NCBI GenBank assembly: GCA_965232885.1
Contig: CBDDQX010000002.1
Coordinates: 567,868 to 631,867, forward strand
Length of the DNA: 64,000 nt
From: Dehalococcoidia bacterium
GTDB lineage: Bacteria > Chloroflexota > Dehalococcoidia > Lucifugimonadales > UBA3495
Direction of reading: 5' to 3'
Under the pieces are notes generated by a model, which did no database searches, had not been told where the DNA came from, and saw only the letters and a program-made list of their open reading frames with translations. The translations under genes and the position numbers were made by a program. Positions 1,752 through 63,075 of the stretch are shown here, one piece after another (position 1 is the stretch's first letter; each line of letters begins with the position of its first letter).

Positions 1752-4700
1752 CTATGCTGTCGCCAGCAGCGCCGCCACCGCCGTCTCGATCGCCTGCGCC
1801 GTCTCGCTGCCGGGCTGCCAGCCGTTGCGTATGCTGGAGCGGGCATTGGTGACGGTCAGCCAGTCCTCGCCGTTCAGCGCCGCCAGCTTGTTCAGCAGGG
1901 CCTTGCACTCTCGCTCTGCCGTCCGACCCAGACGGGACAGCGCGGCGTGGCTTTCGTTACCGGCGTCGTATTCCGGGATAGGCAGTTTCCACAGGTGCTT
2001 TTCCAAATCCCGCGCCCCGAAAAGACCCTTCGGCATAAAATGGCTAACTTCCCGCTCTAGAGTCCGGCTGTTGATAATTGCCAGGAGGTAGCGCGCTTCT
2101 TCTAAGTTTCGGCATGTTACCTGGTAGAGCTTGCGATCCAGAATCGCCTGGTTATCTACAATTAATGCCGCCGTAGGTCGCCCGCTCTGCGAATATGCGA
2201 TGCGTATCGGGCGACGGCGAAGAGGGCAGTTGTTCAATCTGTTGAGCCAGTCCTGATAGGCCATTTCGTCTTCATCGTTAACCCAAGCAAGATATTCCAG
2301 TTGGCTGGTGAGCTTGTTGAGCCAGTTCAGGTTTTGAGTCAGTGATTTGGTGTCGGTTTTGCCCCGGTTAGCCTCCCAGAGCCGCTCCATCTTCTCCCAA
2401 CGCGAGCGCATCCTGTCGTCCAGTTCCTGCTTGTCAACCTCGCAGGCGTCGTGGCGGATGAATCCGCTGGGCAATTCTTCGCAATCGGAATGGTCCAGCG
2501 TCATTTCCAATGTGGCTTTGCTTACCGGCAAAACGGCGATTAAAGGTGGAAGCGTAACGTAGGGAGCAATGGATTCACCAAGATACACGTTAAAGAGGTT
2601 GTCGCCACTCACCAGGTGCCCATCAAGCTCAGCGACGCTGTATGCCTTCTTGTCCAGCGAACCTTCGCGGGGATAGGTAGCGAAAGTGTCCGGCAAAGCG
2701 AACGGTCCTTCGTTGGGATGCACAGTAACGAAGAACAGGCGGCGGTCGGTTATGGTAGGGCCCTGGTTGGCAAAGGGTTCGTAAGGCGACCGGAGTGTGC
2801 CGTCATCGTGAATCAGGTCAGCCATTCTACGGCTAACTTGCGGGGTGCCGGTAGGGCCGCTCCAGATTTCTACTTGCCCAGGCGCGAGGGGTTTGGCCTC
2901 TTGCCCGTGGAGCACGGCGTCGCCCCGATAGCCGGGCATTTGAGCGAAAACTACGCAACTGGTTATGGGAAAGAAGTTGTTGGGGTTCAGGCTTTCCAAG
3001 TCCCATGCTGGCTTGATGCTGAAATCGAGGCTGATGGCTTGCTTGGCGGCGCGGGAACGGGAAGGGCGTTTGGTTTCGTAATAACCGCCCCGGAACTTGA
3101 GATGATGCCCGGTGCGCAGGACGCTGTGGGGCAGCACCATGCCGATTTTGCCTCTCCCTTTCAGGTACAACTCAGCTACGCGGACATAGAACAGCGTCGC
3201 CAGATCCTGGTGCGGTGAGTTAGGACCGCCGGCCCAAATCTGGTAGCGGCTCTGGCTCAACGACCTCAGTTCCTCGCGGATGATGTCGGCGCTCTGGTCA
3301 TAGGTCAGCCAGGGAGGGTTGCCGATGATGGCGTCAACTTTCTGTTGGGAGATAACCATGGGCCGGGTCATGTTGCGGAGATAGTAGGCCCAGACGTGGT
3401 TGCGGTTGTCGCGGTGCAGGGCCTGCATATCCGCGGCGACGGCGGACATGGTGTCACGCTCGGCGGGCTCGGTGACTTCGTGCCTGTCCAGCACACGCTG
3501 AAGATCGTCGCCCCGCTCGATGGCGCCGGACAGGTCTATCATCAGGTTGTCGAATTTCTCGGTTTGCCGGGCCAGGGAAAGGGGTATCTGGAAGCGGACG
3601 CTGCCGGTCTGTCCGGGCAGAGTCTCGCCGGTGTCCAGCGTTATGTAACCTTGGGCGTCCAGTTGGCTGTTGTCGTAGCGCAACTGCATCGAATCGCCCA
3701 AGTGAACCGGGGCAGTGATGGTCCCGCCGGACTGGCCGTCGCGGCGGGCGGCCATGATGACATCGTGGCAGGCTATAACCCAGGTGGCCTTGGCAAGCTG
3801 TACCGCCACGGGATGCAGGTCTATGCCAGCGATGTTCTCCTGCAATTTCGCCAGTTGCTCGCCGGGCGTCAAATCTCCGGCGTGGGCGATGAGGTGGCGG
3901 ACGGCGGCGGCGAGGAAAGTGCCGGAGCCGCAGGACGGGTCGAGAACCCGGGCGTTCACCGGGTCGTCTACCAGTTCTTCGGTGATGGCTTGGGCCAGCC
4001 AGGGCGGAGTGTAATACTCGCCCATTCGCTTGCGCTCGTCGGCGGTGATGGTGTTCTGGTAAAGGGTGGCGGCCAGATCGTCCGGGTTGTCCCGCCAGTC
4101 GAATTTCGCCACCTGCCGGGCGATGACGCCGAGATAGGAATGGTCGCCGGTTTCCAGCGTCCAGGTAAAAAGGTCGGACTCGGTGATTCCTTTCAGCCCG
4201 GTATGCTGGCGCAGGATTTCGCCGTTGAGCAGGTTGTCCGGCTCGGCTTCGGCGTAGCGTTCAACGTCAATGCCGAAGTGGGCCTGAACGATGACGCCGA
4301 CCAGGGCGGTGAGGTAGGTGTGGCGGACGTAGAGCCAGTCGTATTCCGGCGAATCGCCCACGGAGTTCTGGCCGATGGCGACCTGCAACAGCTCGCGCCA
4401 CAGCTTGCGCTTGACCGCGACGGTGGGGCTGTCGCGGTTCTCGCGGTGGGCCTCGGTCAGCAGGGCAGTGGCGGTCTTGAAGACATCACTGGCGGGGCCG
4501 AAATACTTGAGCAGGTTGTCAGCCGACGGCGTGATGCTTTCGGCTTGAGTGTCTATTATGTCGTACAGGTACTCATACAGACGGATGCCCTGTTGTGGGT
4601 TGTCAAAGACCCGGCGGTTCCTATCCACAGCGACGTCACGCTGGCCGTCGCCGACGGAGCGCTTGAGGTAATTCAGGCCGTCGGTGAGGATTCCGTTCTG

Positions 4701-5039
4701 GATGCCGTTGCCGGCCCTGGCGTTTTCAAGGATGTAGCCGTCCAGTTGCGCGATGGCTTCCGGGTCAATTGCGCCGCCGCTGATGATGCTGCGCTTGAAC
4801 TCAACGTAGGTGTTGCGCAGGTACAGGTCAACCTTGCGGCGGCTGTCAGCGGCGGGGCGTGTCTCGGTGACAATCTCGCTCTCATCGTCGGCGATGCCGG
4901 TGCGCAGCAGGAAATCGCGGAAAGCGCTGCGAATGTCGTTCTCGGACGCGCCGAGGCGGTGGCGCTCCAGCAGCTTGCCCAAGTATTCGCGGGCCAGCCT
5001 TTCGCGCCTTTCGCCGGTTACCGTGTCCGCTGTCGCCAC
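1752..5039 (-). CDS. Type IIG-like restriction-modification enzyme (N6-adenine MTase with N-terminal nuclease)
   Basis: GEYYTPPWLA, DPSCGSGTFL (motif I), GNPPW (motif IV); N-terminal VDLY...VEFK nuclease motif; GTG start assumed. Confidence 0.85.
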   Translation of the reverse strand: MATADTVTGERRERLAREYLGKLLERHRLGASENDIRSAFRDFLLRTGIADDESEIVTETRPAADSRRKVDLYLRNTYVEFKRSIISGGAIDPEAIAQLDGYILENARAGNGIQNGILTDGLNYLKRSVGDGQRDVAVDRNRRVFDNPQQGIRLYEYLYDIIDTQAESITPSADNLLKYFGPASDVFKTATALLTEAHRENRDSPTVAVKRKLWRELLQVAIGQNSVGDSPEYDWLYVRHTYLTALVGVIVQAHFGIDVERYAEAEPDNLLNGEILRQHTGLKGITESDLFTWTLETGDHSYLGVIARQVAKFDWRDNPDDLAATLYQNTITADERKRMGEYYTPPWLAQAITEELVDDPVNARVLDPSCGSGTFLAAAVRHLIAHAGDLTPGEQLAKLQENIAGIDLHPVAVQLAKATWVIACHDVIMAARRDGQSGGTITAPVHLGDSMQLRYDNSQLDAQGYITLDTGETLPGQTGSVRFQIPLSLARQTEKFDNLMIDLSGAIERGDDLQRVLDRHEVTEPAERDTMSAVAADMQALHRDNRNHVWAYYLRNMTRPMVISQQKVDAIIGNPPWLTYDQSADIIREELRSLSQSRYQIWAGGPNSPHQDLATLFYVRVAELYLKGRGKIGMVLPHSVLRTGHHLKFRGGYYETKRPSRSRAAKQAISLDFSIKPAWDLESLNPNNFFPITSCVVFAQMPGYRGDAVLHGQEAKPLAPGQVEIWSGPTGTPQVSRRMADLIHDDGTLRSPYEPFANQGPTITDRRLFFVTVHPNEGPFALPDTFATYPREGSLDKKAYSVAELDGHLVSGDNLFNVYLGESIAPYVTLPPLIAVLPVSKATLEMTLDHSDCEELPSGFIRHDACEVDKQELDDRMRSRWEKMERLWEANRGKTDTKSLTQNLNWLNKLTSQLEYLAWVNDEDEMAYQDWLNRLNNCPLRRRPIRIAYSQSGRPTAALIVDNQAILDRKLYQVTCRNLEEARYLLAIINSRTLEREVSHFMPKGLFGARDLEKHLWKLPIPEYDAGNESHAALSRLGRTAERECKALLNKLAALNGEDWLTVTNARSSIRNGWQPGSETAQAIETAVAALLATA

Positions 5040-5192
5040 GCCGTTGCCTCCTGGTGCCAGTGCGGGGATTCTAGCACAGGGGCAGAAGGCCGGGCGAGGG
5101 GCGATTGTCAGGGAATCCGGAATGACGCAAAGGCGCAAAGATGCTAAGGGGAGGGAATACATGCAAGTGTCCGGGCGTCTCGGCTTCTTTCT

Positions 5193-5329: not shown

Positions 5330-7048
5330 ATGCCGACAGCCAGCGAGATGATTGTGCAGACTTTGGAGGAAGCCGGAGTCGAGTATGTCTTCGGCATACC
5401 CGGCGGGGGAACAGGGCAGATTTTCCAACTGCTCTATGGGCGGGAGGACCGCATCAAGACCATCCTGGTGCGGCACGAGCAGGCCGCCGCCATCATGGCC
5501 GACGCCTACGGGCGGGCCACGGGCAAGCCCGCGGTGGTCATGGGGCAAGGGCTGTTCATCGGCTCCAACGCCTCCTTCGGCATCATGGAGGCGATGCTGA
5601 GCAGCTCGCCGATGCTGGTGCTTACCGACACCTCCGACGGCGGTTCAGCCCAGCGTCCGGCCAACCAGTCGGGGGCCGGCGAGTACGGCAGCATAGACCT
5701 GCCTAACATCTTCAAGTCCATGAGTAAGTATACCGCCCTGGCTGCCAGTCCCAAGGAGGCGGTGCTGGCGACGCAGATGGCCATCAAGCACGCGATCAGC
5801 GGGCGGCCGGGGCCGTCGTCGGTGGTGATGCGGTCGGCCGCCATCGGCGGCGAGGTGGACGTGGAGTCGCCGCCCTTCATCCACAACGCCGCCGGGTTCC
5901 TGAACACCACCAAGCCGGAGAGCGCGCCATCGGACGTGCAGCGGGTCATCGAGATACTTTCGGAGTCGCGCCGCCCGGTGCTGGTGGCGGGCAACGGAGT
6001 CCACGTGGCACGCGCCCACGCGCAGTTGCAGGAACTGGCCGAATTGTGGGGTATGCCCGTTGCGACGTCATATAAAGGAAAGAGCGCCATCGCCGAGACG
6101 CATCCGCTGTCGGTCGGGATGGTCGGGACTTACGGACAGGCCGTCGCCAACCGGGTGGTGGGAGAGGCCGATACGGTCATTGTCGTGGGGGCGTTGCTCC
6201 GCTCGCAGGAAACCGTCCGCGAGCGTCCTGACATCTTCGACCCACGGCGGCAGCGCGTGGTGCAGATTGACATTGACGAGCGCAACGCCGGGTGGAGCTT
6301 CCCAGTGGAAATCGGACTGGTGGGCGACGCTGGCAGCATTCTCAATCAACTGGTGGCCGCGTCGAAAGAGGCTGCCGAGGCCAGCGCAGGTCAGCGCAGT
6401 GAGTGGACCGCCTCGATGGCGCCGCGAAAGGATGCGATGGCTTTCTATGATGACCCTGAGATGCACCGGGACAGCTCGCCGGTCACCCCGCAGCGGCTGG
6501 TATCCGTACTGAACGAAGTGTCTGACCCGTCCACAGTCTACGCGCTGGACGCGGGCAACAACCGGACGTGGATGGCGCACCTGTACCAAGCGCAGGAGGC
6601 GGCGACGTTCTACTGTCCGGGCGGAACGGCGGGCATGGGGTGGGCGCTGCCGGCGGCGGTGGGGCTGAAGCTGGTGTACCCTGACCGTCCGGTGACGGCT
6701 GTGACCGGCGACGGCGGATACATGATGACCGTCAACGCCCTGTCCACGGCGATGCAGTACGACCTGCCGATGACCTGCGTGGTCTTCAACGACAACGCGC
6801 TGGGGATGGTGCTGGACCACCAGCCGAGGGGGCAGGAAATTGCCTCGGAATTCTACCCGACGGACAACGCGGCCATAGCGCGGGGGTTCGGCTGCTTCGG
6901 GGTGCGCGTCGAGGACTCCCGCGACCTGCCGGACGCGCTGCGGGAGGCGCAGGCGTCAGGGCTGCCGGCCGTGGTGGACGTCGCCGTAGACCGCGAGCCC
7001 AGCCCGGACGACTGGCGCGCCGACGCCCGCCGCGCTGGCGAGACGTAG
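5330..7048 (+). CDS. Thiamine pyrophosphate-binding protein (acetolactate synthase large subunit-like)
   Basis: RHEQAAAIMADAYGRATG; GDGG...NDN TPP motif; RBS AGGAGG. Confidence 0.9.
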   Translation: MPTASEMIVQTLEEAGVEYVFGIPGGGTGQIFQLLYGREDRIKTILVRHEQAAAIMADAYGRATGKPAVVMGQGLFIGSNASFGIMEAMLSSSPMLVLTDTSDGGSAQRPANQSGAGEYGSIDLPNIFKSMSKYTALAASPKEAVLATQMAIKHAISGRPGPSSVVMRSAAIGGEVDVESPPFIHNAAGFLNTTKPESAPSDVQRVIEILSESRRPVLVAGNGVHVARAHAQLQELAELWGMPVATSYKGKSAIAETHPLSVGMVGTYGQAVANRVVGEADTVIVVGALLRSQETVRERPDIFDPRRQRVVQIDIDERNAGWSFPVEIGLVGDAGSILNQLVAASKEAAEASAGQRSEWTASMAPRKDAMAFYDDPEMHRDSSPVTPQRLVSVLNEVSDPSTVYALDAGNNRTWMAHLYQAQEAATFYCPGGTAGMGWALPAAVGLKLVYPDRPVTAVTGDGGYMMTVNALSTAMQYDLPMTCVVFNDNALGMVLDHQPRGQEIASEFYPTDNAAIARGFGCFGVRVEDSRDLPDALREAQASGLPAVVDVAVDREPSPDDWRADARRAGET

Positions 7049-48970: not shown

Positions 48971-49062
48971 GGTTTTGTTGACATTTTCCCGTCATTCCGG
49001 CTTCCGCCGGGATACGGGAAGGAATTCCCGGACTACTGTATATTGCAAATGTCAACACGCCC
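48971..49062. mobile_element. MITE family B, second copy
   Basis: GGTTTTGTTGACATTT...AAATGTCAACACGCCC. Confidence 0.8.
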
Positions 49063-49090
49063 TAGAATCAAGTCAGGCCAGGTTCGGCGG

Positions 49091-50134
49091 TCATGCGAGA
49101 TTGGGGGCCACCTCTTCCATCATCAGGCGCAGGCTGTTGGACTGATTTTCCAAGGGAATCAGGTTGCCGAAGTTAATCTCGAACATCATCTGGTTCAGTC
49201 CCAGCTCTTCGGCCAAGGAGTTCAGCTTCCCGGCAACGGCCTCGGGCGTGCCGTAGGCCACCTTGTCCCGCAGCCAGTCGTCGTAGGTCATGTTGCGGAC
49301 CCGCTCGGCCTGAGCTCCCCAGTCGCCCAGGGTTCCGGAGCGTCCGGCATAGCTGCCCACCCGGTCAGACAAGCGTCCCATGGAGAACAGGGCGCTTTCC
49401 ATCGGTTCATCGTGGGCTTTCTGCGCGTCGTGGGAAAGGTAGACGGGTATACGCAGCCCCACCTGCCCATCTCCCTCGTGCCCGGCTTCCTTCCAGGCCC
49501 GGCGATAGTCGTCAATGGACGGCTTCAATTCCGCTAACGTGAACACGCGGGAAGGGTTGATCAGGATGTTGAAGCCCATGCGTCCGAGGATGGGGAAGCT
49601 CTCGGCGGAGGTGACACCCACCAGGATGGGAGGGTGCGGAGTCTGGAAGGGCTTGGGGTTCACCGAAAGTTCAGGTATGTTGAAATGCTCGCCCTCGAAG
49701 GAAAAGCTGTCGGTGGTCCAGGACTTCACTATGATTTCAATGCTCTCCTCGAAGCGGCCCCGGCTTTCCTCGAAGGGCACGCCGAATCCCTCGTGGACGT
49801 TGGGGAAGGTGCCCCGCCCGATGCCGAACTCGACGCGCCCGTCGCTAATCTGGTCGAGGGTGGCGATTTCCTCGGCGACTCGCACCGGGTTGGCCAGCGG
49901 CAGGAGCATCACGGCGGTGCCCAAGCGGATCTGCCGGGTGCGGGCCGCGATGGCGCTGAGTATCGTTATCGGGCTGGCCAGCACCCGGCCGGGGTTGAAG
50001 TGGTACTCGGCCATCCAAACCGAAGAAACGCCCAACTCTTCAGCCCGGTCAACCAGCGCAAAGGATTCCTTGAACGCCTCGTTTTCATTGGAGCCTTCAC
50101 GCACCGGGAATTCCAGGAACAGTCCAAGTTCCAT
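49091..50134 (-). CDS. Luciferase-like (LLM) flavin-dependent monooxygenase
   Basis: WMAEYHF, VAEEIATLDQISDGR, GIGRG. Confidence 0.9.
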   Translation of the reverse strand: MELGLFLEFPVREGSNENEAFKESFALVDRAEELGVSSVWMAEYHFNPGRVLASPITILSAIAARTRQIRLGTAVMLLPLANPVRVAEEIATLDQISDGRVEFGIGRGTFPNVHEGFGVPFEESRGRFEESIEIIVKSWTTDSFSFEGEHFNIPELSVNPKPFQTPHPPILVGVTSAESFPILGRMGFNILINPSRVFTLAELKPSIDDYRRAWKEAGHEGDGQVGLRIPVYLSHDAQKAHDEPMESALFSMGRLSDRVGSYAGRSGTLGDWGAQAERVRNMTYDDWLRDKVAYGTPEAVAGKLNSLAEELGLNQMMFEINFGNLIPLENQSNSLRLMMEEVAPNLA

Positions 50135-50340
50135 AGCAACCTCCGCCGCAGAGCCGGATAAGTGCGCTTGATTGTACAGCGATGGCTACGGGCGTCAAGC
50201 GGAGGTGTATTCCCAACATGGATGGACAGGATATACAGGATGGCATGGCATCCCTAGCCGGAATTCGTCCTTTCGCCTAGAATGACTGGCAGTGAAAGTT
50301 ATTTCGCAATGCCTCCCGGCAGGGCAATGGATATCAACAG

Positions 50341-50817
50341 GTGTTAGAAATGAACCGGCCTAACGGGGAATCAGCAAAGTACGCCGAACTGAGCCGACGC
50401 TACATTGAGAGAGCGGACGAATACTTACGGGCGGGGGACAGCGTACAGGCGTCGGAGAAAGGCTGGGGCGCTGTGGCAGAGGCCGTAAAGTCCATAGCCG
50501 AACAACGGGGGTGGAACCATTGGGGACACCATCTGCTGAATGATGTCGCATTCCAGCTATCCGAAGAATGGGATCGTCCAGACTTGCTGTCCATGTACGA
50601 CACTGTGGAAAAACTGCACATCAATTTTTACGAAGACGCCATGGAACTGGACGAAATAGGGTCCAGAATAGACGCGGCCAAGAACCTCTTGGGAGAACTG
50701 GCAGACCTGCGCAATCAGCCGCTGCGGACTCTCCCCATAGCAACTCGCGGACAACGCAACCGCTGGCGCAGGCTCACCGGCGAGCTGTTGCCCATAGAGC
50801 CGGAAGCTGGCGGCTGA
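50341..50817 (+). CDS. PaREP1 (HEPN-like) family protein
   Basis: GDSVQASEKGWGA...LHINFYE. Confidence 0.8.
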   Translation: MLEMNRPNGESAKYAELSRRYIERADEYLRAGDSVQASEKGWGAVAEAVKSIAEQRGWNHWGHHLLNDVAFQLSEEWDRPDLLSMYDTVEKLHINFYEDAMELDEIGSRIDAAKNLLGELADLRNQPLRTLPIATRGQRNRWRRLTGELLPIEPEAGG

Positions 50818-50840
50818 CAGTCGGCGCCGGCGTCTGCTCC

Positions 50841-50998
50841 TCACTCCACGTACCCCCACGTCCCGCGGGCGGGCCTTGCCGCCGTGGACGGAGGGCTCGG
50901 CGCACCACTTGGCCGCCAGACGGCGCGCGGCGCGGTACACATCCTCGCCGAAGCCCGGCAGGGCGCAGATGACGCGGCGGTCCAGCAGGGCGCGGTTG
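50841..50998 (-). pseudogene. 3'-end fragment (copy 1, ~158 bp) of a large R-M-like gene
   Basis: NRALLDRRVICALPGFGEDVYRAARRLAAKWCAEPSVHGGKARPRD; homologous to 52853-53009. Confidence 0.85.
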
Positions 50999-51107
50999 GG
51001 GTGAACGGTACTGAATCCTGTATCACAGACACCACAGGCTACAAATTCCGGTATCCTGAGGTGTCATTCTAATTGCTCTGTATTAGGAGCTATGGTATTG
51101 TAAACGA

Positions 51108-51917
51108 ATGGACGTTCTACCCGCGTTTATTGACGAGACCGGCGCGCTTAATTCAGCCATCCAAAGGCAGCCTGTTTATGGAATAGGATTGCTTCTGGTC
51201 CGTGATCCTGAAAAGGTTACCGACGGGTTCTACCGGCTGCATTATGACTTCGCTTCCATAAGAGCCGCTCAACGGTCAAAGTTGCGGGAAGAAATTAGGC
51301 AGGGGAACTTGTCGCCAACTCCCGGCGAGTTGGATCGCTTGATGTGGAGCACTCGGCACCACGAGTACAAGTTTACAGATGTAACTCATTATAACCTTCA
51401 GCAGTACCTGAACCTGCTGAATTTGTATTTTTCCTACGACTGATTTGAGTTTCACGCCTTGCTCTTGGATAGAACCCAACCAGAGTTCAGGCTTTCCCGG
51501 TGGGACAACGATTCCTGGCGAGCCTATGTCAAGCTGGGGCGAGAGCTTCTGGAACGGCGGCTCAACAGTCCGGCCTTCGTGTTAGTGGATTTCCAAGAGA
51601 AACCCAACGCTGCCTCCGTTACGGTCGAAAGCGAGTTCTGCGCCGTGAAACAAGTCAAGGGTTGTTTGCGGGCATCGTCGGAAACCCAGGTATTTCTACA
51701 ATTGACCGACGTGTTGCTGGGATGTGTTGCCTTTGACCTGCGGGACAAGAACCACTTCTATGCCCAAGACTCCAAACGGGCCGAAGCCAAACGCAATTTG
51801 GTTTCCTTGATGCGCGAAAAGCTGGCGCTGATGGCTGGTCAGCCGATAGTTACCAGTCAGCAACAGGTTTGGGAAACGATGAAGCCTTTTCCCTTCACCG
51901 TATCCCTGTACCGCTGA
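51108..51917 (+). pseudogene. DUF3800-like protein interrupted by an in-frame UGA at 51441-51443
   Basis: N-terminal FIDETG and C-terminal LQLTDVLLG motifs; the two ORF halves are in the same frame. Confidence 0.75.
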
Positions 51918-51921
51918 AAAG

Positions 51922-51996
51922 GAAAATCCGTGGTTATGTCCGGCGCCCTTCCCGATTATCGGGACAAGCGTGCCTCCGGCCACTCCACAGATTTAC
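51922..51996 (-). ncRNA. Candidate DUF3800-associated structured small RNA
   Basis: Closing stem 51924-33/51985-94 with nested stems; TTGTCA-17-TAATCT promoter immediately upstream; U-rich 3' tail. Confidence 0.6.
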
Positions 51997-52093
51997 ATTG
52001 TCAGATTATCAGAAGTCGGCGGTTGTGACAATAGCAATTTGTCCCAGGGCAATCGCGTCTTAACCGAAGACAACCTTTTTCTGTGCCAGTCAA

Positions 52094-52189
52094 CCGTCAT
52101 TCCCGCGAAAGCGGGAATCCATACTGTCGGGTTTTGGAAAATCCATCCCTCCCTGAAACCGTGGATTCCCGCTTTCGCGGGAATGACGG
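52094..52189. repeat. Inverted REP pair (GTCATTCCCGCGAAAGCGGGAATCC family)
   Basis: Perfect ~28-bp inverted arms. Confidence 0.85.
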
Positions 52190-52295
52190 GTATGGGACGG
52201 CCCTGATATTAAGACGCAATCACCCTGCAATTTGTCCAGAGACAAACGTCTCGGGGTAAGGGCGACGACGCCTATGGTACTGCGCCATCTCCCGG

Positions 52296-52340
52296 CTACT
52301 CCACGTACCCCGCGTCCCGCGGCCGGGCCTTGCCGCCGTG
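52296..52340 (-). repeat. 3'-end fragment (copy 2, 45 bp) of the same R-M-like gene
   Basis: Encodes HGGKARPRDAGYVE*. Confidence 0.8.
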
Positions 52341-52359
52341 CGCCGCCGGCGCATCGTGA

Positions 52360-52557
52360 TCAGACGGAAATTTGCTCGAAGGAGAATCCGGGAATAGTCA
52401 TGCATTCCCGGGCGTGTTCAATGGTTATGGCGCAGAGACGACCGTCGCCGTCCAGATCCAGCAGCGTGTTCTCATTGAGGTCTCTCGTCTCGTCTACCTC
52501 GGCGGGATATAGCTCGATGTACAGAGTGTCCGTACTTTCAAAGTATCTGATTTTCAT
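52360..52557 (-). CDS. DUF2283 domain protein (putative antitoxin)
   Basis: MKIRYFESTDTLYIEL...LDLDGDGRLCAITIEHA. Confidence 0.85.
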   Translation of the reverse strand: MKIRYFESTDTLYIELYPAEVDETRDLNENTLLDLDGDGRLCAITIEHARECMTIPGFSFEQISV

Positions 52558-52786
52558 GGGTTGAAAGACCGGTCAAAGAAAGCGTTATGAACCGTTTGCC
52601 TATCCGGCAACAGAATTACCCTGAGATAACGTCCGTCTCTGAAATCGGTGCCCATAGCCGGCTCCGACCGTCAGCTTGTACTCTTTCCCTAGCCGGACTG
52701 TCAACCACGCGCTCAATCCAATCGAACTCGATAAATGAACGATCAGGACGCTGGCGCATATGCCAAAAGTAATCGGTGAACTCCAT
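52554..52786 (-). pseudogene. Frameshifted putative toxin partnered with DUF2283
   Basis: MEFTDYF...RLWAPISE, then another frame reads DGRYLRVILLPDRQTVHNAFFDRSFNP* with an ATGA overlap into DUF2283. Confidence 0.7.
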
Positions 52787-52852
52787 CTTCGGTTGACGTC
52801 CGCCTCTATTATAGACGCATCAGATCCTATACGCCCGACTCCAGCAACCCCG

Positions 52853-53140
52853 TCACTCCACGTACTCCGCGTCTCGCGGGCGGGCCTTGCCGCCGTGGAC
52901 GGAGGGCTCGGCGCACCACTTGGCCGCCAGGCGGCGCACGCCCCGGTAGACGTCCTCGCCGAAGCCCAGCAGGTCGCAGACCACGCGGCGATCCAGCAGG
53001 GCGCGGTTGACGTCGGCGTCGGCCAGGTAGGCGGGCATCAGGTCCAGCTCGCGGAACTCGTCGAAGATGCGCTCAGCGGTGGCAAGCTGCCCGTCGCTGA
53101 GGGTGCGGAAGTCTAGGATGGGGAGGGTTTCGGCTTGGCG
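52853..53140 (-). pseudogene. 3'-end fragment (copy 3, ~290 bp) of the large R-M-like gene
   Basis: AETLPILDFRTL...NRALLDRRVV...AKWCAEPSVHGGKARPRDAEYVE*. Confidence 0.8.
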
Positions 53141-53160
53141 GATACCTGTGGCTAGGATTG

Positions 53161-54369
53161 CTAGTCCAGCCGTGCAGATACGCAATATTCGAATAATTCC
53201 TTTTTACTGTTTCTCTTTCTTATTGGTCTAGAATTGACCTTGCCAAATCCTTGAGAGCGCAGCGATTCCATATAAAGCTCAGGGGTTGGCACGTGTATTC
53301 CGTAGAATGTGCTGTTGCCGATTATATATTGAACTTCTGCGTTTTCGTTCAAGGCCGGTTTTATGGAAGCAATATGCCGGTCTATGTCATGGAAGTACTT
53401 TTTAACGTAGACCGACAGCAATTCGCAGTTTGGACCGCCGGATTCGCGTATGTTCCGCACAGTGGAATCGAGAGTTGGCATTTGGCAATCGTGGCTTGGC
53501 GACCATTTGGCGAGTCGGCTCGTCGCGATTCCCCAAGTGCCTCCGATGGCCTGCCAATCCAGCTCACCTGCTTCCCTTGGCTCGTCCAAAAATCCCAACC
53601 AAAACATATATGGCCGCAACTCCCGAATGTAGCTGATTCGGTTTGGATAGGGAGGAGATGTGACGATGGCGTCAAAGGAAAATCCCTGGGGCAGTGGTTC
53701 TGAACTGTCCCGCAGATAAACTCTGCCGTCAGGATTTAATGGCACTAGGGCATCGTCGATAAATGATTCAGCAAAAGAAGCAAAGGAGAAAAGAATCTGA
53801 TGCAGAGAATAAGGCTTCGCAGCTTGGTGAAATGACACAGAGACGTGATTGAACGCGGCAGCAGAATGCTCGATAGTTACTCTCGCAAAAGCAACCCAAA
53901 GAGGCGCGAAACAAGAAGATTCCAGCGGTTCTTGAATCAACTCCGACAGGGATGCCCTCAGCTTGGCGAGATTTTCCAGAGTCTCGCTATCCCACCATCT
54001 TTCGATATTGCTAATTTGAGGATACCGTAGTTCATCTCTTGGGACTCTCTGGGCGCGGGCCGTTACTTCCCGAACTGCTTTACGCAATTCTGCTGCCTGC
54101 TCGCAAGTTAACGTTTGCAGCTTGACATTACCAAGCCACACCAGAAATGGGTTGATGTCTAACAGACTGCTGGAATGTCCGTATTCGCCAGCCACAATGC
54201 CTGTGGTCGCGGTGCCAGAGAAAGGGTCAAGTATGTGGCTTCCGTGGTGGAGTTGCTCGATAATCTCCCGAACCAGCTTCACTGAATAGGCCGGAGTAAG
54301 GCGAAGCCAGCCATGACGGCCTAGACGCAGGTTATACTTGAAAGTGTAATCCGCTCGCTGCGTAATCAT
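53161..54369 (-). CDS. Type II amino-DNA methyltransferase (probably N4-cytosine)
   Basis: DPFSGTATT (motif I) before TSPPY (motif IV); visibly lower GC than host genes. Confidence 0.85.
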   Translation of the reverse strand: MITQRADYTFKYNLRLGRHGWLRLTPAYSVKLVREIIEQLHHGSHILDPFSGTATTGIVAGEYGHSSSLLDINPFLVWLGNVKLQTLTCEQAAELRKAVREVTARAQRVPRDELRYPQISNIERWWDSETLENLAKLRASLSELIQEPLESSCFAPLWVAFARVTIEHSAAAFNHVSVSFHQAAKPYSLHQILFSFASFAESFIDDALVPLNPDGRVYLRDSSEPLPQGFSFDAIVTSPPYPNRISYIRELRPYMFWLGFLDEPREAGELDWQAIGGTWGIATSRLAKWSPSHDCQMPTLDSTVRNIRESGGPNCELLSVYVKKYFHDIDRHIASIKPALNENAEVQYIIGNSTFYGIHVPTPELYMESLRSQGFGKVNSRPIRKRNSKKELFEYCVSARLD

Positions 54370-55160
54370 TCCGACCGTAATAGCGCCTCCAATATTTGCT
54401 CAATCTCTGTTCTGATCGCATCGCAGTTCCTCTGGAAGAACCCCGCCAAATCATAGCCGATGACCTCAGCCATAAAATCGTATAGGGATTCACATGGGCC
54501 GTTACCTACGGTTCCAATCAGGATTCCGCAGCGGCTGTTGCGGTAGCGCAGAACTATGTCAGAATCTATCTGCCGGGAAAATACGGCGATTACCGGCAAA
54601 TAACCATGCGACCAAGCGACGGTTGCGTTGTCTATGTCTGCGTTCTGCCGCTTGGAATCTTTGCTCTTGTAGCCCTGACGTACCTCAAAAACTGCACCGT
54701 TGCGTGGAGTTTCAGGGACGCCGAGCTGACCGCAATACTCCCCTATCCAAGAAAGGGTACGATCCGCGACGTCCGGCACGGTTATATCGCTTATACCGAG
54801 CCGCCCGTCCAGAGTTAGAGTTTTCGTCCTCCCTGAAGGGGTCTGGGTAGTATATGACCAACTGGCCGCTTTGGGATCCTGATAGCCCGCCATATCCGCA
54901 AGTATCTGACGTAAAAGTCGCTCGCATCCCAGACCGATTTGGCGGTAAACGGAGGTCATACCCCCGGCTGCCTTGTGGGCAGCATACATTAAGTCTGAGT
55001 TCAACCCAATCCAGGCATAGAACAGGTCGCTGCCGTACATTTCTCGAAAATTCAGCAGTGATACCCCGCCCGCCTGCCTGATAGTCCCAAACTTTGGAAC
55101 GTAGTGTGCGCACTGCCTTACCGGATCGAGAAACATATCGAGGTATTCGAGGTCAGTCAT
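54366..55160 (-). CDS. Putative Type II restriction endonuclease
   Basis: LDG...FEVRQGYKS PD-(D/E)xK-like motif; ATGA-coupled to the MTase. Confidence 0.7.
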   Translation of the reverse strand: MTDLEYLDMFLDPVRQCAHYVPKFGTIRQAGGVSLLNFREMYGSDLFYAWIGLNSDLMYAAHKAAGGMTSVYRQIGLGCERLLRQILADMAGYQDPKAASWSYTTQTPSGRTKTLTLDGRLGISDITVPDVADRTLSWIGEYCGQLGVPETPRNGAVFEVRQGYKSKDSKRQNADIDNATVAWSHGYLPVIAVFSRQIDSDIVLRYRNSRCGILIGTVGNGPCESLYDFMAEVIGYDLAGFFQRNCDAIRTEIEQILEALLRSE

Positions 55161-55284
55161 ACCTTTTCCCAACAATCAGATACTGAAGCCTGAGTTGTGG
55201 CGATAAAGCTCCCATGGTTGCTACGGTAGCGGAATCACAATAATGCGTGCAACGGGCAATTGTCAGCAATTTACCTTCAGCCAT

Positions 55285-55719
55285 TCATTTTCGGAGGGCC
55301 AGATCGGTGACTGAGCCGTCCAGCCAGCCGGATTCCGGGAAGCGGAGGGCCTGGCCCCCCTCAGCGGTGAAGACGCAGTAGCGAAGGGTGGAGTCGCGCA
55401 GGGATGCGGTCAGGTCATCGGCTTCGGATAGGTCTTCGGGATAGCGCAGGGCGATGACGGCTTCGATGGGGCGGGGCTGACCGACCACCTTCAGGCCCAG
55501 CCGTTCCTTCGCTTCCGGCTCGACGGTGTGCGCCGGGTCGTACTCGGCCTCGATGACCACGGGCGAGCGTCCGGGGGCGGTGACCAGGATGTCGGGCTGG
55601 AGTCCGGCGCGGCCCTCGATAACCTGGGTGTTTTCCGGGCGCACGGCAGCCTTGCCCAGCATACCTTGCAGCAGGTTGCCGAGGGCGTTGTTGGCGCTGG
55701 GTTCGGTCTGGTGGGGCAT
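55285..55719 (-). pseudogene. N-terminal remnant of a large Type IIG-like R-M gene
   Basis: QPDILV...IEAE nuclease-like motif; host-like GC ends abruptly at ~55295. Confidence 0.6.
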
Positions 55720-55745
55720 AAGAAACTATCCCCAAACTTCCTCAT

Positions 55746-55826
55746 CATCCTGTATATCCTGTCTATCGATGTTAGAACACACAGGTGATGGTTTAATTAA
55801 CATGGATGGACAGGATATACAGGATA
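55746..55826. repeat. Inverted REP pair (AACATGGATGGACAGGATATACAGGAT family); a single copy also at ~50215
   Basis: 27-nt motif identical at 50215 and 55799; imperfect reverse complement at 55747. Confidence 0.75.
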
Positions 55827-55840
55827 AGGATTGCCCTGCG

Positions 55841-56869
55841 TTACCTCTGCGGTTCGATTACCACCTTGAGGGAGTCGGAAGCGCCGGCGGTTAGCTGGAA
55901 GCCGAGGCCCGTCTCCTCCAGCGGCAGGCGGTGCGAGATCATATCGCCCACCTGCACCCGGCCCGAGGCGATGAGGTCGAGGGCGATAGCAAGGTCGCCC
56001 GGGGCGGCGGCGTAGGTGGTGGTCAAGGTTGCGCCGTTGCGGAAGAAGACATCGTTGATGGACACCGGAATCTCGACGCCCGGCTCGGTGGGAGCGTAGA
56101 ACAACACGGTGCCGTCGCGGTCCACGGAATCGAGGGCCTGCATGAGGGCGGGCCGGGCCCCGGTGGCGACGATGACCAGGTCGGCCAGCAACCCGCCGTT
56201 GACCTCGCGCAGGCGGTCGGGGGTGAACTCATCGGCCCGAAGCGTGGCGTCGGCGCCCAGGCTGCGGGCGGCGGCGAGGCGGAAGTCGGACAGGTCGGTG
56301 GACACGATGCGCCCGGCTCCCAAGGCGCGGGCCAGGTTTATGTGAAGCATACCGGCCAGACCGCTGCCCAGAACCAGCACCGACTGGCCGGGCTGGATGT
56401 TGGCCCGCCGCTGCCCGCGGTAGACGCAGGCCAGCGGCTCGGCCACGGAGGCTTCGTCGAAGGGCACGCCATCGGGGATGGGGAACGCGCCACGGTCGAC
56501 GTTGATGGCGGGCAGGCGAACGTACTCGCAGAAGCCGCCGGGGTCGTAGTTGGTGGCGCGCAAGGTGTCGCAGACGGTGTGATGTCCGCTGAGGCAGTAG
56601 CGGCAGGCGTTGCAGGGGACGTGGTGGGTCACCACCAGGCGGTCGCCCTCGCGGAACTGCGACACGCCGGCTCCCACCTGGGCCACCGACCCGGCGACCT
56701 CATGCCCCAGCACCACGGGAGCGCGCTGGATGCGATACCATTCCATGACGTCGCTGCCGCAGATGCTGCTGGCTTCAATCTTGAGCAGCAGCTCGCCTAG
56801 GCCAACCTCGGGCGTCGGCATCTCCTCGATACGAACGTCGCTGTTGTTGTAATACATCGCTACGCGCAT
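55841..56869 (-). CDS. Zn-dependent alcohol/polyol dehydrogenase
   Basis: ICGSD, GHE, CNACRYC...C, GSGLAG. Confidence 0.9.
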   Translation of the reverse strand: MRVAMYYNNSDVRIEEMPTPEVGLGELLLKIEASSICGSDVMEWYRIQRAPVVLGHEVAGSVAQVGAGVSQFREGDRLVVTHHVPCNACRYCLSGHHTVCDTLRATNYDPGGFCEYVRLPAINVDRGAFPIPDGVPFDEASVAEPLACVYRGQRRANIQPGQSVLVLGSGLAGMLHINLARALGAGRIVSTDLSDFRLAAARSLGADATLRADEFTPDRLREVNGGLLADLVIVATGARPALMQALDSVDRDGTVLFYAPTEPGVEIPVSINDVFFRNGATLTTTYAAAPGDLAIALDLIASGRVQVGDMISHRLPLEETGLGFQLTAGASDSLKVVIEPQR

Positions 56870-56984
56870 GGTGGCCTGCCTTTTCCGTCAGTTTTCAACG
56901 CAGAGAACACAGAGAGGCGCAGAGGACGCAGAGATTGTTGGGACTGTTAAACGCTCTGCGCTCTCTGCCTTAAAATACCCCGCC

Positions 56985-57804
56985 TTAATCTGAAACGCCC
57001 ACCAGCTCGCCGGTCTCGGCGCGGGCGGCATCGAAGATTTCCTTCGCCTCTGCCACCGTGCCGTTACCGTGTACGATGTGTCGCAGGGCGCGAATTGTGG
57101 GTACGGGGTGCGGACTCTGCCAGATGTTGCGGCCCAGGTTGATGCCGATGGCGCCGTTCCGCATCCCGTCATGCACGAACTCCAGCACCTCCAGCTCGGT
57201 GTCGGCCCTGGGGCCGCCGGCCATCACCACCGGCACCGGGCAGCCGTCCACCACGCGGTCAAAGCCGTCGGCGCACCAGTAGGTCTTGACCACTTTTGCG
57301 CCCATCTCGGCGCAGATGCGGCAGGCCATCGCCAGGTAGCGGGAGTCGCGCTGGTCCAGCTCGCGGCCCACGGCGGTCACAGCCATCACCGGAATGCCGT
57401 AGCGCTCGCCCTCGTCCACCAGCTTGCCGAGGTTGAGTATGGACTGCTTCTGGTACTCGGAGCCGATGAACACGGAAATGCCAACGGCGGACACGTTGAG
57501 CCGGACGGCGTCTTCCATGGAGGTAGTCAGGCCCTCATCGGCCAGGTCGCCGGCGGTCATGCTGGTGCCGCCGGATACGCGGAGGATGAGCGGCTTGGTG
57601 TTGGCCGGGTCAACGACAGCGCGGACCACTCCGCGGGTGGCGAACAGGGCATCGGAGTAGGGCAGCAGCGGCGCAATGGTCTCGCCGGGGCCGCTCGAGG
57701 CTGCGCGTGGGGCCTTGAAAGTACCCGTGGTCAATGGGAAGGAACATACACTTCCCGTCGGATTGAATCAGTTGAGCCATGCGGTTGGCCATTCCCCAGT
57801 CCAT
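56985..57804 (-). pseudogene. lsrF: LsrF-like (class I aldolase fold) thiolase/aldolase with a single frameshift
   Basis: MDWGMANRM...IDHGYFQGPT...LERP switches frame at ~57687 to GETIAPLLPY...VKTY...AGGP...GRNIWQ. Confidence 0.8.
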
Positions 57805-59862: not shown

Positions 59863-62800
59863 TTAGGAATAGTAGTCCGGCAGGATTGCCCGTACTGACT
59901 CATCAATGCTGGACAGGATGGGCAGCATGGCCCGGTCTCGCAGCACGTCATTGCGTTTGATGCGCTGGCGGCCTACCTGCCGCTCCATCACCAGCGCCTC
60001 TACCAGACGATGAGCCAAAACTGATTGAGATGACAGGTTAGCATGATGTCTGTTGCTGGTGTCGAACTTGGGAATCGGCAGATTTCTCACTGGGCCGGTA
60101 TGGAAGTCTCTGTCTGACAAACGCCCGGCGTTGCTGAAAAAATCCGCCAAGCAAGGGGCGTTAAAAATGGCGGCCAAGTAATGAAGCTCCCCAGCTTGGG
60201 AACTGGAATACCAGTACAAAGTGCCGTCAGCTATAAGATTTGCATCAACAACCGACGATTCCAGCCAAGAACCTGACTTTCGATATACTATCTTGTACGT
60301 CCCCGGCTCATTACCAAGTTGCGACGACAGCTTTCCTTGGTAATCCACTTGGCTAAGCAAAGTATCTGGCGGGCGAGGCCCGCTCAATCTGCGCCAATCC
60401 CTGTCGGCATTGTCCCAATACAACCGGAAATCCGCAGCTCCATCTCCTTGCGGCAAGCCGGTTTCCAGACTGCGGCCGTCCTCTGCGAAAGGAGCAATGA
60501 TATGGGATTGGCCTACTGTGCCAAAAGGCAGCAAAAGACGGGAGAAAATCGCCGGTTTCACAAATCTTTCTTCAACTTGGCCGTTCCGCGCTGAAGCAGC
60601 CCAAGCCCCTTTGCCGGTATTAGTTCTGAAGTAAATTTTTCCTAAAGCTCTGGAAAGAGATTGCTCGAAAACCACTAACGGTTGAGGGAAAAGGGTCGCC
60701 CCATTGCGAAAGGAATTCGCATAGGCTTCGCTAGGCTTTGTATCTTGTGTAGGGCGTGGAGTGAAGGTTAATTTGGGACTGACCTCATCCCACGGCATTT
60801 TAGGATTGACCGATTCAGTGTTAGCAATCCTCTGGATGCCGGACAATGGAACAGCCTGTGCTCTGCGGTGTCCGCCGGTGTTGAGCTTTGTTCCAAAAAC
60901 CACCGACGAATTTGCTTGAGGAAAGGGCGGGGAATTGAGATTCATCAAATCCCAGGCGTCCTTGCTGAGGTCTATCAGAGTTGGGAGGCGGCCTGAAGTT
61001 TCCGGAAGGCCCCAAACCCCGGCGCGAAAAGCCTCCCACTGCCTGGCTCGTAAAGCGGCATACGGCAGCACAAAACCAAACTTGCCTCCGTGCTCAAGAT
61101 AATAGTCAACGCAAGTAGCGGCGAAAGTGGCTGCTATATCATTCTGCGTCGCAAGATTGGCGGATGCCCATAGCTTCCGGTCTTGAGCCTGTTGCCGGAA
61201 AGCGTCCTGCCGCTCGTTGCTCATAGCGTTGTAAACCACCCACGGCGGGTTGCCCACTATCCGGGATGCTGGCTGCTGCGCCAGACGGTAGGGTTGTACT
61301 AAGTTGGAAATATACCAGTACCAGACATGATTGCGCCCTTCTTCTATGTACTGGCGAAACCTGCGGTAGGTCTCGATGAGAGCGCCCTTTTCGTCTTCGG
61401 TGTTGAGGTTTAGCACAGCCGCCAGATCATCTTCTATCCCTGGATACTCGGTGCGGCGAGCATAATCAAAGACCTGGTTCAGACGGGGCAGAAAGTAGTC
61501 GGACAGAAGAAAACTTCGGGGTAGCTGCAATGGCGCGTCCGGGTCATCAGTGGGTATGTCTAGAAGAGCGCCCAGCTCAAAGAGCGCGCTATTTCGTCGT
61601 ATTTCCCATTGCAGACTGTCGCCGAGGTAGACTCCGGCTGTCTCTTCCGACTTGGCATAAGACGCCAAATCCGAGAAGGCCAAAATTTTCGTGGTTTTCG
61701 CCAGCTCGACAGCTACCGGATGCAAATCTATCCCGGCAACCAGACCGTTGACAATCTCCACTTGAGCTTGCGGACTGTTTGCCAGTTTGGGATGTTTGCG
61801 GGCGTCTTCCAGTAACAGTTGGGTAGCGTGGTAAAGGAATGTGCCGGAGCCGCATGAGGGATCTAGCACTACCGGGCCTTGCGTCTGGCCCGCAACGGCC
61901 ATTTCAATGACTTCCCTCCGCCACTCCGCATCCATCACTTCCTCGCAAACGGCGCGGGCCAGCCAGTCAGGTGTGTAGTATTCGCCAAAATCGTGACGGA
62001 TGTTCCTGGGGATTACTGCATGGTACAGATCTTTAAGAGCATCTCGGTTTTGAGAACGCCATTCATACCTGTCTACTTCTGCAATGGTTTCGTTCAGCAG
62101 CGTTTTACCGGCCTCATCCGAAGCGTCCAGAACCCACGCGGCAAAGCCTTCCGTGTAAGAGCCATGGCGCATTTCTTGCCTGATACCCTGCTGCTCTGCA
62201 GGACGAATCGTTTCTGCCACCGCGCGGGCGACTACCACGAGCATGGTATGCCGGGCGAAAAGGTTGCGCTCGGCGGCGCTATCGCCAGGAGGTGCAAGAT
62301 AGGCGCCCCGTAACACGTCGCGCCATAGTGCCCTTTTCACATCGTAAGCCGGGGACTGCTCGCAGCTTGCGGCCAGAGCGATGTACTGCCGGGCCAAGCC
62401 TTCCACCCATATCTCATTATCAGTAGGTGGGGCCAGCTTCGTTGTGCGGTCTACAAACTGATATAGATACCCAAGAAGCTCATCGTCATCATGCGGCGTG
62501 TCAAGCCGAATATCCCTATCCAGAGTGAGGCGCCGCTCCAAGGGCATATCAAAACCTGGGCTGTAGTTATAGAAGCTCCATTCCTTTCCGTCGGTGACGC
62601 AGGCCCGCCGTCCAATACGGCCTGAGTCAAACAAACCGGGCCGGCTGGCAAGAGCATCTAGGTATCGAAGAGCTTGCTCTTCCGGAGTTTCAGTTGAACC
62701 GTTCGGTTTAGTGCGCGCGTCATCCTTCTTGCCCTGCCGTTTGGTCTCAAAAACCACGTTCCGGCAGTAAACATCTACCGGACTGTCCCCGGATGGATAT

Positions 62801-63075
62801 TGCGTGGCTATATCAGGGTATCGCAAGCCTGGGAACAGATGGCCTAAGATGGAACGCAAATGCGATTCCACTTCCGCTTCGGCTACGGAATCCGGCAATT
62901 CCCGCAGCCGGGCTATCCCTTCACGAGCCAAATCCCAATGTGGCTCCCCAGTAACGCTGAACGCTTGCATATAACCATCCAGCCCAGCCATGGATTGAGG
63001 GGATACTAGCGCAGATTCCGGCGGAATGACAACCACTGGTGAAACCCCACTGCGCCGTCGTGTATACTGTGCCAA
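59863..63075 (-). CDS. Type IIG-like R-M enzyme (N6-adenine MTase plus nuclease), paralog of 1752-5039; start uncertain
   Basis: VDVY...FETK, GEYYTPDWLA, DPSCGSGTFL, GNPPW. Confidence 0.85.
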   Translation of the reverse strand: MAQYTRRRSGVSPVVVIPPESALVSPQSMAGLDGYMQAFSVTGEPHWDLAREGIARLRELPDSVAEAEVESHLRSILGHLFPGLRYPDIATQYPSGDSPVDVYCRNVVFETKRQGKKDDARTKPNGSTETPEEQALRYLDALASRPGLFDSGRIGRRACVTDGKEWSFYNYSPGFDMPLERRLTLDRDIRLDTPHDDDELLGYLYQFVDRTTKLAPPTDNEIWVEGLARQYIALAASCEQSPAYDVKRALWRDVLRGAYLAPPGDSAAERNLFARHTMLVVVARAVAETIRPAEQQGIRQEMRHGSYTEGFAAWVLDASDEAGKTLLNETIAEVDRYEWRSQNRDALKDLYHAVIPRNIRHDFGEYYTPDWLARAVCEEVMDAEWRREVIEMAVAGQTQGPVVLDPSCGSGTFLYHATQLLLEDARKHPKLANSPQAQVEIVNGLVAGIDLHPVAVELAKTTKILAFSDLASYAKSEETAGVYLGDSLQWEIRRNSALFELGALLDIPTDDPDAPLQLPRSFLLSDYFLPRLNQVFDYARRTEYPGIEDDLAAVLNLNTEDEKGALIETYRRFRQYIEEGRNHVWYWYISNLVQPYRLAQQPASRIVGNPPWVVYNAMSNERQDAFRQQAQDRKLWASANLATQNDIAATFAATCVDYYLEHGGKFGFVLPYAALRARQWEAFRAGVWGLPETSGRLPTLIDLSKDAWDLMNLNSPPFPQANSSVVFGTKLNTGGHRRAQAVPLSGIQRIANTESVNPKMPWDEVSPKLTFTPRPTQDTKPSEAYANSFRNGATLFPQPLVVFEQSLSRALGKIYFRTNTGKGAWAASARNGQVEERFVKPAIFSRLLLPFGTVGQSHIIAPFAEDGRSLETGLPQGDGAADFRLYWDNADRDWRRLSGPRPPDTLLSQVDYQGKLSSQLGNEPGTYKIVYRKSGSWLESSVVDANLIADGTLYWYSSSQAGELHYLAAIFNAPCLADFFSNAGRLSDRDFHTGPVRNLPIPKFDTSNRHHANLSSQSVLAHRLVEALVMERQVGRQRIKRNDVLRDRAMLPILSSIDESVRAILPDYYS

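Follow-up and report, generated by a model that had tools for sequence, protein, structure and literature searches.

Introduction

Integrons collect small accessory, toxin-antitoxin (TA) and defence genes in cassette arrays by means of the integrase IntI and palindromic attC sites with a single crossover point. Defence genes also build up beside restriction-modification (R-M) systems, and how this happens without integrases or transposases is largely assumed, not demonstrated. Payne et al. (bioRxiv 10.1101/2024.01.29.577857) reported an accumulation of further candidate defence genes within or next to defence systems; in the main text the words "recombination", "truncated", "fragment" and "type IIG" are absent, and neither a stub nor a mechanism is offered. 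Here we describe an array of unrelated cassettes at positions 50341-55719 of a 64,000-nucleotide stretch (the window) from a Dehalococcoidia bacterium (assembly GCA_965232885.1, contig CBDDQX010000002.1, positions 567,868 to 631,867). The cassettes are separated by the leftover 3' ends (tail stubs, or C-stubs) of one R-M gene, and ordinary recombination machinery, not a dedicated enzyme, is the likely builder.

Arrays of similar layout are known from the C-terminal displacement of Rhs proteins (Jackson et al. 2009, PMC2935791) and from the effector-immunity displacement arrays of type VI secretion systems (T6SS; Kirchberger et al. 2017, PMC5361080): co-oriented downstream gene fragments of varying length form direct repeats, the cargo is low in GC, old modules are pushed back, an integrase is lacking, and integration of a circle by crossover or homology-facilitated illegitimate recombination (HFIR) was proposed. 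In those systems, however, the fragments are a conserved core fused to a variable toxin tip plus an immunity gene, and the incoming piece alters the protein, whereas the stubs described here are the conserved end of an R-M gene without toxin tips, the protein end would be rebuilt, and the cargo consists of separate, unrelated neighbour genes and includes scraps of housekeeping genes from other sites. Amarir-Bouhram et al. (2011, PMC3240628) described HFIR as homology on one side and, usually, 3-10 bp of microhomology on the other; in E. coli, a circle integrating by a single crossover gave duplications of 109-950 bp of the homologous locus around the insert, which is the layout of the array. 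Those were laboratory events with selected markers, and HFIR usually deleted recipient DNA, whereas for the uncultured Dehalococcoidia both routes are proposals made from sequence. Furuta, Abe and Kobayashi (2010, PMC2853133) described insertion of R-M systems with long target duplication, allelic substitution and exchange of target recognition domains (TRD) in Type IIG genes. The array shares with these cases, found mostly in competent species, the long, variable direct repeats around inserts that lack a mobility gene, the replacement of R-M systems by each other at one locus and a variable TRD in a Type IIG gene. In those cases, however, R-M systems insert into other DNA, whereas here the R-M tail is the repeatedly duplicated target and events stack. 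In the literature covered, with most subscription papers and all supplements outside its scope, no report on R-M gene tails as repeated cassette borders was found.

Results

Organization of the array

The genome that holds the window (G000, the window being on its contig C2) was compared with relatives (G001 etc.) in a genus set of 40 genomes. To this end 80 stretches from relatives were used, 40 around the slot of the array (site A) and 40 around stronger matches; the set excludes distant paralogues and some six partial matches. The features of the slot, from its left to its right flank, are the following.

55841-56869, minus strand: gene for a Zn-dependent dehydrogenase, conserved on the left side of the slot (site A); Pfam ADH_N/ADH_zinc_N; one orthologue in 40/40 genus genomes.
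55742-55830, no strand: inverted repeat like a repetitive extragenic palindrome (REP); arm recurs at 50215-50241; 4 exact copies and 15 at up to 2 mismatches in the genome; not array-specific.
55297-55719, minus strand: N-stub, comprising the 141 opening codons of the 967-aa R-M gene, which encode a nuclease-like domain; the open reading frame (ORF) extends to 55285.
54366-55160, minus strand: Type II restriction endonuclease (REase), 264 aa, frame intact; PADLOC REase_II PDLC03512, E 5e-70.
53161-54369, minus strand: cognate Type II methyltransferase (MTase), 402 aa, frame intact; PADLOC MTase_II; Pfam N6_N4_Mtase below cut-off.
52853-53144, minus strand: C-stub 1, the R-M gene's last 292 nt; 90% nucleotide identity to the G009 gene.
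52554-52786, minus strand: putative small toxin gene, frameshifted; 60-73% aa identity to ORFs behind gene ends in G024, G006 and G023.
52360-52557, minus strand: DUF2283 protein, putative antitoxin, 65 aa; Pfam PF10049, E 4.5e-16.
52296-52340, minus strand: C-stub 2, the R-M gene's last 45 nt; weak extension to about 52356.
52094-52189, no strand: REP-type palindrome, very common in the genome, where its arm has 50 exact and 132 near-exact copies.
51925-51993, minus strand: candidate structured RNA, a hairpin of ~70 nt facing the DUF3800 gene.
51108-51917, plus strand: DUF3800 gene, split by an in-frame stop at 51441-51443.
51006-51023, plus strand: donor tag, last two codons plus stop of the site-D enoyl-CoA hydratase (51006-51014) and adjoining spacer.
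50841-51002, minus strand: C-stub 3, the R-M gene's last 161 nt plus a 1-nt insertion (162 nt); 83% nucleotide identity to the G009 gene; decayed.
50341-50817, plus strand: PaREP1-family gene, 158 aa; Pfam PF05942, E 1.5e-21.
49091-50134, minus strand: luciferase-like monooxygenase (LLM), conserved right flank of the slot; Pfam PF00296; orthologue in 38/40 genomes.

The three co-oriented C-stubs (292, 45 and 162 nt) match the 3' end of the R-M gene of G009. They end at one identical stop codon and begin at different points, as an earlier note made from the letters of this stretch had described. All cargo pieces named in that note are present; its placement of them all on the minus strand was wrong, since the DUF3800 and PaREP1 genes lie on the plus strand. 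Nor is the array built inside the gene, as had been suggested: only the REase and MTase genes lie between N-stub and C-stub, and the other cassettes follow successive copies of the stop, as they follow intact genes in relatives. Inserts between repeats of more than 30 bp and without a mobility gene are the TA block (between stubs 1 and 2) and the DUF3800 block (between stubs 2 and 3); the REase-MTase pair is not placed between repeats, unlike the R-M inserts of PMC2853133.

The array region contains two families of REP-like repeats (52094-52189; 50215-50241 with 55742-55830). A 27-nt direct repeat at the array flanks, considered as a target-site duplication, was rejected; it is the genome-wide REP-like repeat. 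None of the 25 longest inverted repeats listed had both arms in a stub.

The array is real and no assembly artefact. Contigs from short reads (runs X1, X3 and X4) tile it with zero differences, and all six joins between cargo and stubs are bridged by such contigs, which bears on the possibility of misassembly raised in the earlier note. A chimera of strain variants joined through the repeated tail could draw on three facts: the contigs break at the 56-nt core common to stubs 1 and 3 and at the REP palindrome (and only there), so that block order across these two points is not provable from them and no listed piece spans the array; and the three runs come from one study, possibly from the source sample. 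The shared core, however, has about double depth, the block depths are of one order without a consistent direction (X1 18-30, X3 23-35, X4 3-8), and arrays with two stubs also occur in G027 and G016. A chimera is thus scarcely credible. Depth differences between blocks were inconsistent across runs and were therefore not used as evidence. Among contigs listed at 97% likeness, which drop rare variants, no variant or excision joint between stubs was seen, and no RNA run holding the stretch was found among the sequencing runs listed. In X3 and in a further run, X5, contigs from related organisms connect these flanks through different content (705 other letters in X3; about 1 kb plus the gene tail in X5). 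X5 holds just parts of the array and served as evidence for neither habitat nor strain.

The stubs belong to one Type IIG-like gene family

Both ends of the dismantled gene were traced to the same family. The N-stub is 79.7% identical to nucleotides 1-423 of the 2,904-nt gene of G009 and 79-81% identical at the amino acid level to proteins of about 967 aa, and C-stub 1 matches the end of that gene with 90%. The earlier proposal that N- and C-stubs come from one gene is borne out at the level of the family, not of a single allele. Three distant full-length paralogues in the window genome match N-stub and C-stub alike. Close relatives of the parent gene encode ~967 aa and are recorded mainly from Dehalococcoidia metagenome-assembled genomes.

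The earlier view of a large Type IIG-like parent agrees with its motifs. Among 16 family sequences, D43 and E57 are invariant, giving an acidic nuclease-type motif at the N-terminus, which we take to be a PD-(D/E)xK motif. Invariant are also MTase motif I, D351-x-A-C-G-x-G357, and N486-P-P (486-488), in gamma order. The family passed the Pfam cut-off for Eco57I; the N-stub had no Pfam match. A specificity-type variable region lies after the MTase, and the C-terminal half is variable. In a Foldseek search with a mid-confidence model of the 967-aa protein (pLDDT 66.7, pTM 0.44), the top matches were DrdV (PDB 7LO5, 7LVV) and BpuSI (PDB 3S1S), with E-values of 4e-11 and 5e-11, at 10-14% identity and TM-scores of 0.26-0.30; a single-sequence search of the PDB gave nothing at E<0.1. 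With these two enzymes the parent protein shares the nuclease-like N-terminus, the gamma-order MTase motifs and the variable C-terminal half. Judged by its motifs, the parent is one family of 967-aa single-chain R-M genes of Type IIG/IIL-like kind, with a predicted nuclease and MTase in one chain. In 25 full genes, the last 216 nt have a mean pairwise identity of 0.77-0.82 and a GC content of 0.67-0.73, whereas the 1.1 kb before position -316 (counted from the gene end) have an identity of 0.51-0.71 and lower GC.

The window contains two more Type IIG-like genes, at 59863-63075 and 1755-5162, both on the minus strand. The former occupies a slot (site B) in which G009 and G007 have the 967-aa family instead; a stub scan of the window genome gave no copy of it elsewhere. 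A distant paralogue of the family (G000:C3:1023803-1026817) lies between the E1-alpha and E1-beta genes, where G038 and G006 have close members.

The tails differ in sequence and in breakpoint

A nucleotide profile of the family's last 480 nt matched stubs 1, 2 and 3 with E-values of 5e-86, 0.004 and 1e-35 and gave zero matches in shuffled loci. Stubs 1 and 3 had been read as diverged alleles that differ largely at synonymous positions. Over 49 codons, 7 synonymous and 9 non-synonymous changes separate them, in addition to the 1-nt insertion. With a pS of 0.17 and a pN of 0.085 the synonymous bias is a modest, two-fold one (7/16 changes), and the second part of that reading is overstated. Three of the amino acid changes are family variants and four are at nearly fixed residues. 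In stub 3 we see a diverged allele with additional decay. Its 5' part resembles the alleles of sites D and E and its 3' part the local one.

Across the genus, more than 20 different stub starts were found, from -25 to -489, with about 12 at -63 to -91 and 5 at -160 to -179. The clusters could be explained if the R-M protein or another resident nuclease cuts in or near its own gene and repair templated by a paralogue makes the stubs, which would turn the gene into the active driver. The presence of the family at many sites without a mobility gene fits such a role, as do the published R-M insertion with long target duplication (PMC2853133) and the variable duplications that arose in E. coli by cutting and re-circularization (PMC3240628). 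The clusters, however, coincide with the most conserved and GC-rich part of the gene, in which homology alone suffices; stubs also serve at 14 loci without the gene; and short stubs near the detection limit bias the distribution of breakpoints. We consider a driving nuclease unlikely.

The same slot in relatives

Site A was compared in 37 genomes with both flanks on one contig; in 33 the gap was below 2 kb and without a trace of the gene. Other relatives carry an intact gene or different cargo, which the earlier note had named as support for its reading. G025 has an intact R-M gene followed by PaREP1, G012 a 164-nt N-stub, the same REase-MTase pair and a C-stub, and G007 different cargo. In G001 the site is split between two contigs and comprises a near-full gene followed by DUF2283, one stub and PaREP1. 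The left join of this stub is that of window stub 2 (behind DUF2283) and the right join that of window stub 3; therefore, G001 corresponds to the window minus the RNA-DUF3800 block. The island at site A of G012 (L035, about 2680-2730 and 6100-6115) is bracketed by a 14-nt direct repeat of the end of the upstream LLM gene, and the right-hand copy is preceded by a short internal fragment of the R-M gene.

Junctions carry pieces of other sites

The DUF3800-RNA cassette ends in 18 nt that are identical to site D of G016 and G015 and unique in the window genome; 9 of these are the last two codons plus stop of the enoyl-CoA hydratase flanking site D. Six relatives have the cassette, five of them at site D. 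In the sixth, G024, it lies elsewhere, together with a scrap of the hydratase and a 25-nt stub that resembles G024's own gene. At site G of G038, cargo plus ~125 nt of the same hydratase end are joined at -76 through GGCGG, and in G033 a tract of ~340 nt that originates downstream of a paralogue and breaks off within an ORF is joined at about -75. The donor tracts thus end inside ORFs (G033, G038) or at the hydratase end (window, G024). Read from these joins, cargo is shown to move between sites together with pieces of the donor-site flank. Such donor-tagged junctions, as far as sequences reveal traffic between sites, are what this locus adds.

The junctions bear on local tandem duplication of the tail plus its neighbour, followed by divergence or replacement of the cargo and without traffic between sites. 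Tandem arrays of paralogues are numerous in the window genome, tandem two-gene units open with a repeat of the last 41 nt of an MmeI-type gene (see below), and an ARPRD motif is common to all three window stubs and not found in the ends of 25 full relatives, all of which would suit local duplication. The cargos in the window are unrelated, however, pieces of another site's housekeeping gene adjoin stubs in the window, G024 and G038, and stubs 1 and 3 differ at family-variant residues. Local duplication is rather improbable as the source of the array.

Distribution of stubs and controls

In the genus, the parent family was found at no fewer than eight unrelated chromosomal sites (at least 8) with differing housekeeping flanks. 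In the window genome, site C (C1:155337-158024) has a DnaJ-DEAD helicase, site D (C3:539020-541773) a VapC-type gene and an MTase-HNH, and site E (C4:305457-308863) a DUF1156-like MTase and PaREP1. By hand count, 6 of the 31 near-full genes of the genus have a tail stub downstream, behind cargo; four were detected by the profile, that of G024 by a 24-nt matrix and that of G001 by direct alignment. Tail stubs without the gene were present at 14 further loci; at three of these an N-stub accompanied them, and two loci had two tails. Beside near-full genes, tail stubs were found neither upstream nor on the opposite strand, in the genus set as well as in a wider set. The wider scans returned 130 loci, of which 86, including kin that are not independent, were analysed and 44 distant ones left out. 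The 86 loci contained 70 full genes, of which 8 also belong to the genus set.

As a control, the genes of the window genome were searched for 3' ends repeated within 8 kb. This was the case for 54 of 2,656 genes, most of them apparent tandem paralogues or overlaps with REP repeats; 6 were opened for inspection. Among the controls one R-M gene, of the MmeI type (C4:229305-232010; L109 = C4:227000-232010), had true tail repeats: its last 41 nt recur twice, and at each recurrence they open one diverged version of a two-gene unit. Arrays in which 3-7 diverged paralogues (PaREP1-like and others) follow each other in tandem are frequent in the genus (L079 and L081; G000:C1:380188-382833 and C1:1293546-1297523), and some of them lie directly behind the R-M gene.

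Cargo genes and the candidate RNA

A pool of cargo recurs across sites: toxin-like genes with DUF2283, VapC-like pairs, PaREP1, the RNA with or without DUF3800, and other R-M genes; several cargos adjoining stubs in the genus have no Pfam family. The REase and MTase genes have a GC content of ~49-55%, versus ~60-70% in the flanking genes. The MTase has an SPPY motif and is presumably an m4C enzyme. Orthologues of the REase precede a C-stub in G012, G038 and G015, and the pair as a whole was found ahead of a C-stub in four genomes, at three sites; the N-stubs there measure 423, 164, 94 and 0 nt. The resemblance of the right joins makes the spread and erosion of a single old unit as probable as separate captures. 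The pair also occurs in three genomes that belong to two other genera, with no remnant of the R-M gene nearby.

The putative toxin has 56 aa, compared with ~78 in relatives, owing to a frameshift, and matched no Pfam or NCBIfam family; its pairing with DUF2283 is what suggests a toxin role. The DUF3800 match is weak in the window (E 0.023) and above the Pfam cut-off in the intact copy of a relative; on either side of the stop at 51441-51443, the gene is ~75% identical at the amino acid level to the copy of G013. The inner cargo (TA and DUF3800) is therefore broken, while the gene-proximal R-M pair is intact. PaREP1 is probably the oldest cargo of the array, because a PaREP1 gene lies directly behind the intact gene in G025.

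For the candidate RNA, 23 pairs are predicted across 10 copies, 3 of them with changes on both sides. An Rfam search of 49000-57000 gave two chance-level matches only and none for the candidate RNA, and a motif search found one other copy in the window genome, at site D (G000:C3:539212). The hairpin thus has no Rfam match among the DUF3800-associated RNA motifs I-XI (Weinberg 2017), and a conserved hairpin beside DUF3800 fits their kind. Its neighbour may be DUF3800 or other small genes, it also stands alone, and three relatives (L078, L082 and L075) have it as a tandem pair.

Discussion

In sum, we favour the view that the array consists of unrelated cargo separated by the leftover tails of one R-M gene and was probably assembled by ordinary recombination. 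The window genome encodes recA, comEC and dprA; Ku was not found in this genome, which is 89% complete. Its 6 tyrosine and 14 serine recombinase matches all lie elsewhere: no tyrosine recombinase (PF00589) was found on contig C2, and the nearest serine recombinase is ~217 kb from the array. Ten similar large serine recombinase frames (545-638 aa) are located on C1-C3, none near the array. A site-specific recombinase encoded elsewhere might nonetheless target the tail, as islands use the 3' ends of tRNA genes, with stubs trimmed later; the co-orientation of all stubs as 3' ends and the recombinases elsewhere in the genome would agree with that. Against it stand the more than 20 stub starts, donor tracts that stop at arbitrary points inside ORFs and the lack of any recombinase family among the scanned cargo and flank genes. 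An enzyme of this kind is very improbable.

Ordinary recombination by HFIR or by a circle plus single crossover fits the array because homology is one-sided, the far ends are arbitrary and the starts are scattered. A donor fragment spanning the tail and genes downstream of it would pair by RecA with the resident gene on one side, and the other side would be joined where a few bases coincide within the resident tail, directly in the case of HFIR or else via a circle that integrates by one crossover. The gene end would thereby be rebuilt before the new cargo, and the old end would stay behind as a stub with the old cargo. Stubs could then serve as direct repeats for gain or loss of whole cassettes. 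For the window, gene and PaREP1 would have come first, then the DUF3800/RNA and toxin-DUF2283 cassettes in either sequence, and last a REase-MTase unit, already with a tail stub, that would have replaced nucleotides 424 to about 2612 of the gene. The rebuilding of the gene end, the sequence of these events and a role of the cargo in defence are our inferences. Stub 3, composite of site-D/E-like and local parts, and the own-gene-like stub of G024 do not tell the HFIR and circle routes apart.

The integron-like stacking proposed in the earlier note therefore stands for the layout, with a conserved tail as recurring border and no integrase near, and not for an integron proper: it is integron-like in layout only, because there is no fixed crossover site. 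The array resembles integrons as a series of small accessory, TA and defence cassettes with a likely newest-first polarity. Unlike in integrons, there is no IntI on the contig and no single crossover point, the borders are coding stubs of 25-489 nt, and the cargo lies on both strands.

Several observations weigh against this account or narrow its reach. Most near-full genes of the genus (25 of 31) have no stub. Beyond the 40-genome set the profile found a downstream stub at only 1 of 62 full genes, in addition to one broken gene, and stub formation is thus not a general property of the family. PaREP1, presumed to be the oldest cargo, is intact, which misfits a simple gradient of decay with age. 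The hydratase part of the window's tag is just 9 nt long, stop codon included. Of the four junctions with a known donor, only one shows clean, exact microhomology (5 nt); the join of G033 has 2 nt or none, depending on the reference, and those of the window and G024 have 3 and 7 unmatched bases. The donors are other species with one genome each, and no event was caught between close strains. Later trimming could also scatter the stub starts. The rate of such events in the laboratory was very low (PMC3240628). The effect is patchy by lineage and based on known recombination chemistry.

A wider and more speculative reading, which we regard as possible but doubtful, is that the multi-site Type IIG-like family forms a distributed, integrase-free cassette platform. 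The selected, GC-rich tail would be the shared landing pad at eight or more slots, cassettes would move between slots and species as tail-bounded units or circles, stubs would remain active after loss of the gene, and cutting by the enzyme itself may start captures. If this holds, tail stubs would mark new defence genes as attC marks integron cassettes.

The seams of the array retain the address of the donor, so that the route of capture can be read from them. Such arrays likely serve to exchange and store anti-phage and addiction genes in slots where R-M genes are already present. If the process is general, stubs of R-M gene ends would be a searchable marker for newly gained defence and toxin-antitoxin genes.

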